The translations under genes were made by a program, and so were the position numbers. A stretch of DNA of 27,258 nt from a virus. Lineage: Duplodnaviria; Caudoviricetes. The stretch's first letter is position 1, and each line of letters begins with the position of its first letter. The DNA lies in the IMG/VR virus record IMGVR_UViG_3300012347_000169, positions 1 through 27,258 of that record; one strand, written 5' to 3'. This document shows, one piece after another, positions 1,982-9,822 of the stretch. The notes beneath the pieces were generated by a model, which was given only the letters and a program-made list of their open reading frames with translations, was not told where the DNA came from and ran no database searches.

Positions 1982-2254
1982 TTAGTCAGAACCACTGACA
2001 ATATGCAAACCATTCACACAGTCTGAGTGGCCACAGGATCTTTTGCCTGGCATGAATAGTTGTGAGTTTTTCATCGGGTTGTCATCGTGGTCAAATGCCT
2101 CAGTCCAAGGGATGCAACGTTCTGATCCATACTGAATACTCTTGACTGGGGTTGCTCGACAACTTGAGCAGAGGTAAGACTTTTGCTTGCGTTTATTCAG
2201 GGGTACGACGATAGTCCATCCACACCGTTTACAAACCAAGCGATTTTCTTCCAC
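1982..2254 (-). CDS. Zinc-ribbon plus degenerate His-Cys-box/HNH-like protein
   Basis: CKRC...CSSC, then CIPW...CGHSDCVNGLH; GTG start. Confidence 0.65.
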   Translation of the reverse strand: MEENRLVCKRCGWTIVVPLNKRKQKSYLCSSCRATPVKSIQYGSERCIPWTEAFDHDDNPMKNSQLFMPGKRSCGHSDCVNGLHIVSGSD

Positions 2255-2283
2255 CGAATCATGCTAACGCATCCGGCAGGTTC

Positions 2284-2606
2284 TGAGTTGAGAGAAAGGG
2301 CTTGTTTCCAGACCCTTTTCTTTACTCATCCGTATAGGACTTCGCATCGATTATGGGGGAATGTCCACTACAGACATCCCAGCCGCGCCAAATGTTGTTG
2401 AACTCCTTTCCCGAGGATCACGGCGACTCGAATACGAACCAACCCAACAACTCTTTCACTTCTCAGTGGCAGTCTTTCCTTGCTTGTCAACCCACGCTCA
2501 TCTTTTGGGTAAACCAGGCGATGCCCCTCTAACGGGCGATCTAGACGGTGATTAGCCGAATCTCGTTGACTTTACATCTGGCGAACGGGTAGACCCTCAG
2601 ATGAAA
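2284..2606 (-). ncRNA. Candidate large structured non-coding RNA (unassigned family)
   Basis: Largest intergenic gap. It holds many nested stems, GNRA tetraloops (GAGA, GAAA) and G-U pairs that work only on the minus strand, with an upstream promoter. Confidence 0.65.
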
Positions 2607-2610
2607 ACTA

Positions 2611-2638
2611 ATACTACTTACTTTTTGTCAGAGTGCAA
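2611..2638 (-). promoter_or_regulatory. Putative promoter TTGCAC-16-TAGTAT for the structured RNA
   Basis: The predicted start (~2604) coincides with the first stem. Confidence 0.5.
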
Positions 2639-3700
2639 ATCTACACCAACCAGTAGGTGACGTAGAGCCAGCTCTGCTTGTTGAGGCACTACTCCATTGC
2701 CACAAGCCTTTAGCTCCTCGACTCTTGATAGACCAATGTTCGTTAGCCATCCAGCAGGTACGCCCATCATCCATTCTGTGAACTCTGGGTTTAGGCGGTG
2801 TGAGTTGTCTTTTCCATCTGGGCGTGTCGGAGCAGGTGCAGGTCGACCAAGCAATTCTTCCCAACGGCGGATTGCTGGCTCGAACTTACCCCAAGTTGTA
2901 AGTACCTGATCTTCTAGACGTGCTTTAGGTGCACCAGCCGCAACTTGCACCGAGGATGAGTCGGCAGCATTGGCACGGGGAGTACCAAGTAGTACCTCAC
3001 CACTGTTGAAGATAGCTCTGGCCACGGTGTCGGTGCTGACTACGCCATCTCGACTTGTAGGTGCAGAACCATCTTTGTAGTCACGGGTAATAGGTGTCGG
3101 CAACAATTCATTGATGACTGACTCACGAAGATTGCGGTATCCGCCAGGCGACTTGGCTTTTAGCTCTGCTATCTGTTCTGGAGATTTGATCTCTCGATGT
3201 TCCATAGTGTTTGGCGTTGGCAGCAGATTGTCTGCAACTCGACTTACTTTCATACCCTGACTAGCGACCAAATCCATCACCTGATCGCGTACACCAACTG
3301 TGTTGCCTCGCTTCAATGCCTCGGCTTCACCAAGTGCTCCACCAGATCCTTCTGATGCTTTAGGAGATCGTAGAAGTACACCTTCATGTAGAGCTTTAAC
3401 CTGTGTGCCAAGTTGTGGCTGAGTGCGGCGTAAGCCAGCTTCAAAGCCCTCGGGTGCGTGGTCTCTAGCTTTCGGTGTTGCTAGGGTAGGCGATGACGAA
3501 AACTCTGAATCGGCTGTGAGGTGCTCCGGCATCTGAAGCCCGAACACTTGTCCATTTCGCATCGTACCCGAGGTCTGCCAAGTCTCCGAGAACAGCTCCC
3601 AGTGCTCGCAAAACAGGTTCGCCATCCCCTGTTTCTCCCATACACCACGGGCAGTGTTCCAAGTCAACGTGGGCTGTGGCTGATAAAAGTCCTCTAACAT
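2618..3700 (-). CDS. C5-cytosine DNA methyltransferase, C-terminal part (repeat/target-recognition region plus motifs IX-X)
   Basis: RLNPEFTEWMMGVPAGW (motif IX-like) and ELKACGNGVVPQQA (motif X). Start is uncertain: ATG 3700, TTG 3706, or a frameshift. Confidence 0.8.
   Translation of the reverse strand: MLEDFYQPQPTLTWNTARGVWEKQGMANLFCEHWELFSETWQTSGTMRNGQVFGLQMPEHLTADSEFSSSPTLATPKARDHAPEGFEAGLRRTQPQLGTQVKALHEGVLLRSPKASEGSGGALGEAEALKRGNTVGVRDQVMDLVASQGMKVSRVADNLLPTPNTMEHREIKSPEQIAELKAKSPGGYRNLRESVINELLPTPITRDYKDGSAPTSRDGVVSTDTVARAIFNSGEVLLGTPRANAADSSSVQVAAGAPKARLEDQVLTTWGKFEPAIRRWEELLGRPAPAPTRPDGKDNSHRLNPEFTEWMMGVPAGWLTNIGLSRVEELKACGNGVVPQQAELALRHLLVGVDLHSDKK
2894..3487 (-). repeat. Five tandem degenerate protein modules beginning (L/T)Lx(T/S)P
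   Basis: TLATPKARD, LLRSPKASE, LLPTPNTME, LLPTPITRD and LLGTPRANA, each module 33-50 aa. Confidence 0.75.
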
Positions 3701-4034
3701 TTTCAATAACTACCAATCTTGGTCGTAGAACATCAATTGCTTTATAGAACTCTGACCATAATCCTGATCGAGTTCCCTCTTTTAGTCCAGCTCGCTTGCC
3801 AGCCAAGGATAGATCCTGACACGGAAAACCACCAGTAAGGATGTCAACGGGCTCTACATTTGCCCAATCAACTTTTGATACATCTTTGAAGTTAGGTACG
3901 CCTGGAAAGTTGTGTTCCAAGATCTTTGACGGGGCATCTTCCCATTCACAGTGCCAAGCGACCTCTGCACCCGTGGTGTTTGCCACAGCTAGATCTAGAC
4001 CACCGTACCCACTAAACAGTGAGCCAATCTTCAC
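3465..4034 (-). CDS. C5-cytosine DNA methyltransferase, N-terminal catalytic part (motifs I-VIII)
   Basis: LFSGYGG (I), GGFPCQDLS (IV), ENV (VI), PHSRFRVF (VIII). Confidence 0.92.
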   Translation of the reverse strand: MKIGSLFSGYGGLDLAVANTTGAEVAWHCEWEDAPSKILEHNFPGVPNFKDVSKVDWANVEPVDILTGGFPCQDLSLAGKRAGLKEGTRSGLWSEFYKAIDVLRPRLVVIENVRGLLSATAHVDLEHCPWCMGETGDGEPVLRALGAVLGDLADLGYDAKWTSVRASDAGAPHSRFRVFVIAYPSNTES

Positions 4035-7079: not shown

Positions 7080-7108
7080 TTTTGCCTTTCCCAACGTTTT
7101 GTAGTTGA

Positions 7109-7137
7109 ATCATAGAATGACCCACCGACAAAGTAAA
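7109..7137 (-). promoter_or_regulatory. Putative early promoter TTTACT-17-TATGAT
   Basis: Upstream of the recombination operon, overlapping the whiB start. Confidence 0.55.
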
Positions 7138-7425
7138 GAAACCGCCCTGTTTGAGCTCAATAAGCTGATCATTGAGAACGGGGGTGTCGAGTGTGAGCAA
7201 GTGCCAGAAATCTTCTTTCCAGAGGATGAGCCAGCCGATGGCACTCGTCATCAAGGCATAGCGTTAGCCAAAGTTATCTGTGGGAACTGCCCAGTGAGCT
7301 ACGAGTGTCTTGAGTACGCTCTAATTGCAGAAGAACCATTTGGTATCTGGGGTGGCATGACCCCAAAGAATCGGCAGACTATTTTGTCAGCCAGAAAGCC
7401 TGGATGGTCAAAAGCCAAACAATAA
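7117..7425 (+). CDS. whiB: WhiB-family Fe-S transcription factor
   Basis: C...FFP...AKVICGNCPVSYECLEYAL...GIWGG with four Cys and a basic tail. Confidence 0.95.
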   Translation: MTHRQSKETALFELNKLIIENGGVECEQVPEIFFPEDEPADGTRHQGIALAKVICGNCPVSYECLEYALIAEEPFGIWGGMTPKNRQTILSARKPGWSKAKQ

Positions 7426-8355: not shown

Positions 8356-9822
8356 TTATACTCCTCTCCGATAACTCACTGAACTGACCATGCTTGCTGA
8401 CATAACTGCTTGACTGACTGCCATTGAAACCAAAACTTGCTTTTTAGCTTCTTCACGCTGTTTAGGGCTCATGTCTGCACCAATGTTTCCTAGATTATTG
8501 AAGTTGTCTAAAACCGCTGATGCCACACCGCCGAGAAGCGGAATGTTAGCTAACTCGGTTGGCAGTTCCTCGTCATCTGCTTCAGCTACAACGGCTAGTT
8601 GATCTAGTGCTTGTTCGTATTGTGCTGACCCTGGTTCTGACATCGCCAACGTGCTTACGGCAGCTTCTGTAAGTTGCTGTACTTCAACTTGGGTCAGTTT
8701 CTCTGGCTCAATAGTTTTTGGATTTAGTTGAGCAATTGGTGGCGGATCACTAGGCTTGGGCTCAGAAGGGAGTTCTATTGGTTTGGGTGACGGTGCTTTA
8801 TCTGCTAACGCTGGCGGCTCTGGCTTTGGCGTTGGTGCTATTTCTGGCTTTGGGTTCGGCTCTAATGCAGGTGGTGGGCTGGCTGGCACTTCCGGTTTTG
8901 ATGGCGGTAGTGGTGCTGGTGTTTCTACTGGTAAAGGCATAGGTGGTTCTGGTGCTGGGGCAGGGGCAGGTTCTGGAGCAGGAGCAGGATCTTGAGTAGG
9001 CTCAGGAGTCGGCATAGGCAACACAGTTGGCTGAGGCTCTGGCTGTGGGCTTGGTGTGTTTACGGGCTGAGGCGTAGGTTCTGGGCTCTGCGTAGGTGTT
9101 GGTTCGACTACTGGCGTAGCTAGAACTACTGACCACGTAAAGCGAGTGACCTTTACAACACCGCCACAAGGATCACCGAAAGTTCCATTGTCAAGGGCGA
9201 TAGTCGCTGAAGACTGCCCGACCAGAAGCGTTTGCAGAATAGTGGATACGTCTACTCCACAAGTGTCGTCTGTTGGTGAGCCGTACCAGCCACGAGCAGA
9301 TGCAAATACCCAACCTTCAGGGGCAGTAATCTCTCGGACTGTGCCTTCCCAAGCTTCTTCAGACCACCAGTTGGGCTCGGGGGTTGCCTGTTCTGTAGGC
9401 AAGGTGTAGATAATCGTTGGTGCTGAGATTATCGGGCCATACCAACCAGCCCAAAAACCGCGATCAATACCTGAGACGGTTAGCCTCACTGATCCCGTGA
9501 CGGGTAGCTCAATCACTCGGGTCTCTATTATGTTGCCTGTGATGGTCGTGTCATTTACCGACACTGACCAAGTATCTGCAAGTTCACCGCCACCAATACG
9601 GTTAGCAATCGTGTTGTTTACACTTAGGCGAACGCTGGCACTTATGGCATTATCAGGGATTGTAAAAGTCTGCGATGCCGAGCCACCACGGTAATCAAAT
9701 TGCACTGAACCATTGACAATGTTTGCGTTAGAGCCAGCCCAGTCAGCTTGTGATGGCATAGCTAGGAATAACGAACTAAAAGCCAGCGTAGTAGCCGCTA
9801 AGAAACGAGCGACCTTTGGCAT
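8356..9822 (-). CDS. Secreted surface protein: signal peptide, FBA-like and SUEL-like lectin domains, Pro-rich stalk, helical C-terminal domain
   Basis: Sec signal ending SQA, GIDRGFWAGWYGP, YGS...NGTFGDPCGGVVK, (EP/TP/AP)n stalk, and a hydrophobic end followed by RR. Confidence 0.7.
   Translation of the reverse strand: MPKVARFLAATTLAFSSLFLAMPSQADWAGSNANIVNGSVQFDYRGGSASQTFTIPDNAISASVRLSVNNTIANRIGGGELADTWSVSVNDTTITGNIIETRVIELPVTGSVRLTVSGIDRGFWAGWYGPIISAPTIIYTLPTEQATPEPNWWSEEAWEGTVREITAPEGWVFASARGWYGSPTDDTCGVDVSTILQTLLVGQSSATIALDNGTFGDPCGGVVKVTRFTWSVVLATPVVEPTPTQSPEPTPQPVNTPSPQPEPQPTVLPMPTPEPTQDPAPAPEPAPAPAPEPPMPLPVETPAPLPPSKPEVPASPPPALEPNPKPEIAPTPKPEPPALADKAPSPKPIELPSEPKPSDPPPIAQLNPKTIEPEKLTQVEVQQLTEAAVSTLAMSEPGSAQYEQALDQLAVVAEADDEELPTELANIPLLGGVASAVLDNFNNLGNIGADMSPKQREEAKKQVLVSMAVSQAVMSASMVSSVSYRRGV

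Follow-up and report, generated by a model that had tools for sequence, protein, structure and literature searches.

The window, by which we mean the whole stretch of DNA analysed, is an entire virus record of 27,258 bases. Its 40 scanned ORFs include genes for an HK97-type head, tail and lysis proteins, a RecE-like exonuclease, an HNH protein, a methylase and RusA, and ARAGORN found no tRNA or tmRNA in the window. Since the relatives measure 30-38 kb, the contig is probably incomplete and the absence of a Rep gene from the window alone is little proof. The gene behind the RNA described below has its nearest named relative in the Pontimonas phage phiPsal1 (43% identity), which points to an aquatic actinobacterium as the likely host. 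A WhiB-like gene (7105-7425, plus strand) runs opposite to all other genes, and the ORFs matching it in two complete relatives have WhiB family matches. A 488-aa proline-rich protein without a PHROG family is encoded near the lysis genes (8356-9822, minus strand). A second methylase (phrog_111; 4747-4258, minus strand) is split into two overlapping frames, by a frameshift or an assembly slip.

A non-coding gap (2255-2617, minus strand) separates a methylase half-gene ending at 2618 from a zinc-finger gene starting at 2254. The three minus-strand frames are all closed across it. The cytosine methylase consists of two overlapping ORFs (4034-3465 and 3706-2618, minus strand); in the relatives it is cargo that may be present or missing immediately upstream of either the RNA or the zinc-finger gene. 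Contigs from other sequencing runs cover the gap, one of them spanning the whole stretch with 11 differences in 1001 positions; in two further runs the differences listed fall mostly within the flanking genes. The zinc-finger gene (1982-2254, minus strand) encodes a 90-aa protein with CxxC..CxxC and CGHxDCVNxxH motifs, from a family of 240 representatives at 50% identity. It gave a weak match to zf_Tbcl_2, below the cut-off, and no RuvC family match; its HNH_3-like neighbours at 0.86-0.89 are a lead only. This gene marks the replication slot in phages with and without the RNA alike and is not RNA-specific.

Homologues were collected through the zinc-finger protein, taking the best 80 of 520 viral loci and the best 80 of 365 metagenome loci. 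An independent route, based on RNA patterns, gave true matches in 11 of 18, 10 of 10 and, in genome contigs, 1 of 2 cases. Seven of the 18 matches of the first DNA pattern were dropped for their unrelated contexts, and one of the two genome-contig matches (L220) was rejected, having no covariance-model match. Besides the window, 37 loci carry the RNA, several of them representing the same phage. The alignment holds 27 sequences with a mean pairwise identity of 58% (about 20 effective sequences); outside it were kept six near-duplicates and L039, L112 and L126, which have long inserts. A covariance model of the 5' half of the RNA (R1) gave that half a score of 89 bits and recovered L126, a homologue kept out of it, with 56.6 bits. 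L039, L112 and L126 form a subfamily with an inserted domain ahead of the second strand of the second pseudoknot, while L042, L054, L067, L080, L117, L125 and L132 have one or two additional 5' hairpins. A 31,670-base contig from a Saccharibacteria bin (L219), probably a misbinned phage contig, carries the RNA together with the same early genes.

The alignment outlines a predicted structured non-coding RNA of about 340 nt (2268-2604, ends approximate); the elements described next all lie on the minus strand. The gap and nearly all segments named in the original prediction were found where it had placed them. The promoter that it proposed, TTGCAC (2638-2633), a 16-nt spacer and TAGTAT (2616-2611), is present and overlaps the methylase gene's end. 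In 18 of 30 homologues, against 12% of control windows, a TAnnnT box stands 3-14 nt ahead of the first stem. The window's own promoter, a predicted one, scores 8 of 12 against the consensus and was not listed by the consensus scan. The first stem, P1 (2575-2603), has an outer helix (2603-2598/2580-2575), an inner helix (2596-2594/2589-2587) and an internal loop A / GUUCGC. It is 100% paired in the 27 rows, with two-sided changes in 7 of 9 pairs. From this loop, UCG (2584-2582) would pair with CGA in the linker (2565-2563) to form pseudoknot 1 (2563-2584), which covariation supports and MI-APC ranked first among the tertiary pairs; the window pairs were checked. Two of its pairs are canonical in 27/27 rows and the third in 11/27. 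Pseudoknot 1 was not part of the original prediction and takes up C2565, the last base of the proposed GUCAAC/GUUGAC helix. That helix is present, but with 5 bp, GUCAA (2570-2566) and UUGAC (2490-2486), and only in a subset of homologues, where it was seen by eye; it lies outside the covariation counts given below.

The predicted GUCAA/UUGAC helix (2486-2570) surrounds P3, P4 and a CCCA (2509-2506)/UGGG (2494-2491) hairpin. The GAUU/AAUC pairing proposed earlier for this domain is not conserved; the alignment places there instead P3 (2546-2558), a hairpin of CGG (2558-2556) and CCG (2548-2546) with a 7-nt loop. Its 2556-2548 pair has the highest MI-APC value, and the helix is 95.6% paired with two-sided changes in 6/6 pairs. 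The GCCC/GGGC hairpin was borne out by covariation. P4 (2520-2541) carries a near-invariant loop, GUUAGAG (2533-2527), and is followed by a variable middle domain with nesting that differs among subfamilies.

Downstream, covariation bears out P6 (2457-2468), the CACU-GAGA-AGUG hairpin, whose corresponding helix has two-sided changes in 5/5 pairs (the window row is shifted in the alignment). The same holds for the long stem P7 (2394-2451), which encloses a hairpin whose loop makes pseudoknot 2; two-sided changes occur here in 10/11 and 6/7 pairs. Pseudoknot 2 (2381-2428), anticipated by the original prediction, joins AGUCGC (2428-2423) to GCGGCU (2386-2381) and is 96.3% paired, with two-sided changes in 5 of 6 pairs; the window pairs are AU, GC, UG, CG, GC and CG. 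The P8 hairpin (2358-2380) is likewise supported by covariation, and by our reading a strain variant at 2373 would keep one of its pairs as U-G. The long terminal hairpin proposed at 2328-2284 recurs in its inner part (approximately 2322-2292), whereas the rest does not, and the conserved element extends to approximately 2270. This inner part is P9 (2292-2322), which is present, followed by a pyrimidine tract, in all aligned homologues, with a poorly aligned register and 77.8% pairing.

Two direct repeats of CGGATG, box 1 (2327-2332) and box 2 (2270-2275), flank P9 and the tract, box 2 following box 1 by 57 nt. Across the phages the spacing is 50-64 nt, and the boxes vary in sequence from phage to phage while matching each other within each phage. 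They covary, with a mean of 5.64 of 6 matches against 3.91 +/- 0.19 after permutation (0/20000, 22 distinct pairs; the test ignores phylogeny). No internal complement to the boxes was consistent among the homologous RNAs.

The original prediction had named a folding energy better than that of shuffled sequences, covariation among homologous regions and a search of Rfam as checks. The folding energy went against it, as single-sequence folding of the minus strand (MFE -99.6) was no better than shuffles (z -0.33), nor was that of the plus strand (z -0.24). We have rejected folding energy as a test because it does not model pseudoknots. Covariation was found, RNAalifold giving a covariation term of -13.9 kcal/mol and two-sided changes in 47 of 54 pairs (27 rows). 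When both pseudoknots were included (69 pairs), 90.9% of the cells in the 27 rows were paired, against 69.4% after shuffling (0/500) and 31-41% in slid controls, and 57 of the 69 pairs changed on both sides among the 27 homologues. These figures are not probabilities, given that the structure was drawn from the same sequences and that the shuffle ignores kinship. There is little doubt that stems such as P1, 100% paired with four pair types, are real structure.

The helices contain 116 G-U against 32 A-C pairs when read on the minus strand, an excess that fixes the minus strand as the working one, as had been proposed, and that favours RNA. The alternative that the fold belongs to single-stranded DNA at an origin could draw on the direct repeats as a DNA-level signal and on the replication context described below. 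We hold it to be highly improbable, as G-U exceeds A-C on one strand and a promoter-like box stands at a fixed distance from P1; moreover, both the GNRA loops and the two pseudoknots are features typical of RNA. Judged from the aligned homologues, a structured RNA with two pseudoknots that is conserved on the minus strand is real.

Searches of Rfam found nothing: the window had no match at the gathering score, positions 2200-2700 had none at E 10, and the RNA had none in eight homologous loci. Large pseudoknotted RNAs of 300 nt or more, such as HEARO/omega RNA, ROOL and GOLLD, occur in mobile elements and phages. The RNA differs from them in having no Rfam match at E values up to 10, and neither an IscB among the scanned ORFs nor a tRNA in the window was found. 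HEARO/omega RNA was rejected on the lack of an Rfam match and on the downstream gene, which encodes the 90-aa zinc-finger protein and not IscB/IsrB. Group I and II introns, RNase P, ROOL, GOLLD, tmRNA and small ribozymes were rejected as well, with no covariance-model match in the window or the eight loci and none by ARAGORN. The function of ribozyme offered earlier has no support, there being no match to Rfam ribozymes, introns or RNase P.

A further reading has the RNA regulate the zinc-finger/SSB/RusA operon in cis, as its 5' leader, or takes it for a HEARO/omega-type guide scaffold derived from a mobile element. In its favour are the placement right before one and the same gene in 32 of the 160 loci and a stem-plus-pseudoknot layout resembling that of HEARO. 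However, the zinc-finger gene has a predicted -10 box of its own, TAGCAT (2261-2266, minus strand), 6 nt ahead of its GTG, likely a leaderless promoter. Such a TAnnnT box, 5-9 nt ahead of the start, occurs in the window, in 24 of 24 distinct RNA-type junctions and in 56 of 93 others (background 5.7%), so the RNA is unlikely to be the leader of that gene. In three contigs (L203, L204 and L209) the downstream genes are different, the RNA is single-copy in each record, and neither an Rfam match at E values up to 10 nor any IscB, TnpB or transposase among the scanned ORFs was found. Both forms of this reading are very unlikely.

Outside Rfam, a blastn search of the RNA against 50,697 phage records gave no match, nor did the homologue from L204 against 72,556 plasmids at E 1. 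A description of the RNA family was not found in the open-access literature searched. In the accessible part of the Fremin et al. study, viral RNA candidates measure 29-151 nt, and our RNA motifs and contig identifiers were absent from seven of its supplementary files (PMC10690425); a fragment of the RNA may be among those candidates. On these searches, the family is uncatalogued. A novel multi-domain structured RNA with its own likely promoter, as originally predicted, is thus supported by the covariation, the absence of an Rfam match and the promoter box.

We have then compared the slot upstream of the zinc-finger gene in the 160 loci found through that gene, with slot queries derived from the non-RNA loci. 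The slot contains Rep, be it with DnaB, with a small partner or by itself, or DnaB together with a 363-aa gene, or else the RNA; PHROGs confirmed three slot representatives (replication initiator, DnaB). Rep and/or DnaB were found in 98/98 non-RNA loci with at least 1500 nt upstream, and in 20 of the 30 with a shorter flank, the other 10 being too short to tell. None of the 32 RNA loci had either gene. The unannotated gene of 363-377 aa between DnaB and the zinc-finger gene occurs in L093, L094, L099, L102, L103, L148 and L150.

This pattern extended to whole genomes. Four RNA-type genomes are rated complete, two of them having terminal repeats, and DnaB was absent from 4/4; the control has it. 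A tblastn search with 185 Rep-slot ORFs (92 of the DnaB, 75 of the Rep, 11 of the small partner and 7 of the 363-aa cluster) found none of them in those four genomes or in the window. The PHROG scan of 66 of 126 ORFs in two complete RNA-type genomes revealed no initiator, primase, helicase, polymerase or integrase. The initiator family phrog_270 was found in 5/5 Rep-type records and in 0/6 further RNA-type records (69-100% complete). R1 detected a single RNA copy in each RNA-type record; the 97 non-RNA sources and the five whole Rep-type records had none. A second lineage with another gene order, represented by L203, L204 and L209, carries the RNA away from the zinc-finger gene, which is also present; Rep and DnaB were absent from the two contigs of this lineage fetched whole (44 of 122 ORFs scanned with PHROGs). 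As the ORFs were scanned in part (66/126 and 44/122) and many small ORFs have no family, an unrecognised initiator in the RNA-type phages is possible. Among the loci examined, the RNA and the protein initiators are mutually exclusive.

The exchange can be followed at the gene boundary. A Rep-type locus (L124) and an RNA-type locus (L044) are 90% identical over 1299 nt, from the start of the zinc-finger gene onward. In the zinc-finger tree, whose 91 columns resolve little, the Rep/RNA label changes five times, at least three of these changes being forced by well-supported branches. The loci are redundant and related, and with the RNA rows grouped in a single part of the tree the number of independent swaps is small. 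The cumulative GC skew of three RNA-type and one Rep-type complete genomes showed no turn at the slot and is uninformative.

These data also bear on the reading of the RNA as a stand-alone, ornate phage RNA with another job, be it anti-defence, a sponge or an RNA cage like those of ROOL and GOLLD. The phages would then rely for their replication on recombination, or on a small protein that has escaped recognition, and the anticorrelation with Rep would reflect shared ancestry. The size and complexity of the RNA fit such a role, as do the phylogenetic clustering of the RNA-type rows, its position away from the zinc-finger gene in the second lineage, and the RecE, single-strand annealing protein and RusA genes present among the scanned ORFs of RNA-type phages. 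However, the RNA occurs together with Rep or DnaB in 0/160 loci, the exchange between L124 and L044 is exact to the gene boundary, and the second lineage lacks Rep as well. We consider this reading improbable.

Since these phages must start replication and the RNA appears when Rep disappears, we favour a cis-acting RNA origin. It would be a protein-free, ColE1-like element standing in for Rep/DnaB, a reading drawn from sequence comparison to which we assign a probability of roughly 0.6. Replication primer, one of the functions originally offered, thus has strong contextual support in the slot exchange and the absence of an initiator.

RNA-dependent, RepA-less origins have been shown in actinobacterial phages, as the accessible part of Wetzel et al. 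2020 (PMC7157519) reports: in RepA-less cluster A mycobacteriophages, non-coding regions of about 600 bp allow a plasmid to replicate, and the prophage depends on them for its maintenance whereas lytic growth does not. The term "secondary structure" occurs 0 times in the text of that paper, which gives no origin structure. Ten cluster A-type origin regions (L216-L218 and L221-L227) were compared with the RNA. In RedRock, Alma, Gladiator, LadyBird and Et2Brutus, too, a promoter-driven non-coding region of an actinobacterial-type phage replaces a Rep gene. The RNA and these origins share a hairpin with a 7-nt loop followed by a GUYAGAK-loop hairpin, a stretch where 17 of 18 nt agree with RedRock, and the 3' layout of both closes with a hairpin, then a pyrimidine tract and GAGA. 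The cluster A origins adjoin parABS and serve the prophage. The RNA, in contrast, has genes for a methylase, an HNH protein and a zinc-finger protein as its neighbours; it sits in the early replication slot of phages of 30-38 kb, whose scanned ORFs revealed no polymerase, primase, helicase, integrase or parABS cassette.

Common descent of the two was not supported. With nhmmer, the RNA had no match to the cluster A origins at E 10. R1 found only a 13-nt hairpin in the cluster A origins (E 0.5-3.3), and the cluster A model R2, run on 19 RNA loci, matched nothing but this hairpin, in 2 of them (E 0.67 and 1.3). The profile alignment scored 14.6, a value reached by 9 of 60 shuffles, and a search of the RedRock origin against the plasmids gave no match. 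No homology to the cluster A origin RNA could be demonstrated, none of the four tests being significant. By analogy the RNA may work like the cluster A origins, and we have not filed it as a member.

In ColE1, as described in the accessible part of PMC4412123, a transcript whose promoter lies upstream makes a hybrid that persists, aided by an rG stretch on a template dC stretch, which then primes Pol I or exposes a strand to helicase and primase. The RNA resembles RNA II in being, by prediction, a promoter-driven structured transcript at an initiator-free origin, and in that an RNA segment pairing with a template stretch would be seen as a direct repeat. It differs in that the alignment has no conserved G run, the mixed-sequence covarying repeats being found instead, and no Rfam or plasmid match revealed likeness to ColE1 origins or RNA I. 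Compared with RNA II and its antisense RNA I, the RNA is about 340 nt long, doubly pseudoknotted and phage-borne, with no antisense RNA evident. T4 oriF and oriG are likewise phage origins made of a promoter and a transcript kept on its template, but T4 encodes a replisome of its own and makes use of a DNA unwinding element, and the accessible part of the same source describes no comparable conserved folded RNA for them (PMC4412123).

As a cis-acting origin, the RNA could act as follows. Host RNA polymerase would transcribe it from the promoter at 2638-2611, and the 5' and central domains would fold co-transcriptionally, exposing box 1. Being identical in sequence to box 2, box 1 would pair with the box 2 template strand behind the polymerase and nucleate a persistent R-loop, like the rG/dC contact of ColE1. 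RNase H or a polymerase stop would then provide DNA polymerase I with a 3' end, or else the host restart primosome would be loaded by the displaced strand, and the phage SSB, recombinase and RusA would act in later steps. An RNA segment that pairs with the downstream template appears in the sequence as a direct repeat, as the boxes do. The 3' tail is pyrimidine-rich, and a weak RNA:DNA hybrid is expected of such a tail. The box-guided R-loop, argued by analogy, would be the likeliest form of this step and is also the weakest part of the scheme; we put it forward tentatively, below even odds.

The boxes could equally be protein-binding sites. This is the view taken by the RNP scaffold reading of the original prediction, which stays as a rival: the RNA would bind a host or phage protein (a factor for restart or for helicase loading, or else the zinc-finger protein), with the repeats as the DNA sites of the complex. 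It explains the Rep/DnaB exchange equally and is consistent with the near-invariant unpaired loops such as GUUAGAG, with the 50-64 nt spacing and with a zinc-finger gene in both RNA-bearing lineages. That gene, however, is equally present in Rep-type phages, the repeats lie within the likely transcript, and their sequences diverge widely from phage to phage, a variation that an unchanging host protein would not follow. Such a scaffold seems to us unlikely, if worth keeping in mind.

In its boldest form, the cis-acting RNA origin would mean that a lytic phage lineage swapped its whole protein initiation module (Rep plus helicase/loader) for a self-targeting, doubly pseudoknotted RNA of 340 nt. 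Its internal guide of 6-9 bases, free to vary, would invade the corresponding site in its own template and start replication, making it an R-loop origin that can be programmed; it may also be distantly related to the cluster A origin RNAs. We regard this extension as speculative and rather doubtful. Were the origin reading right, small aquatic phages would replicate without any initiation protein, large phage RNAs of unknown job would acquire a candidate function and actinobacterial genetics would gain an origin of less than 500 bp. There are precedents for RNA-started replication in ColE1 plasmids, in T4 and in cluster A mycobacterial prophages, and how an RNA fold drives hybrid formation is poorly resolved. 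The present family is compact and offers a covariation-based fold and a natural one-for-one exchange with Rep/DnaB.

The comparison also yielded two observations on the cluster A-type origins themselves. In the 90-kb Gordonia phage Daredevil (MH590603), a cluster A-type origin RNA region (L221:2419-2900, approximately 3400-3900) separates an HNH gene from the terminase region, and the annotation shows no parAB gene within 2.5 kb of it. Across L216-L218 and L221-L227, several stems of the cluster A origins show compensatory changes, and a loop may form a pseudoknot with a downstream GGGU tract.
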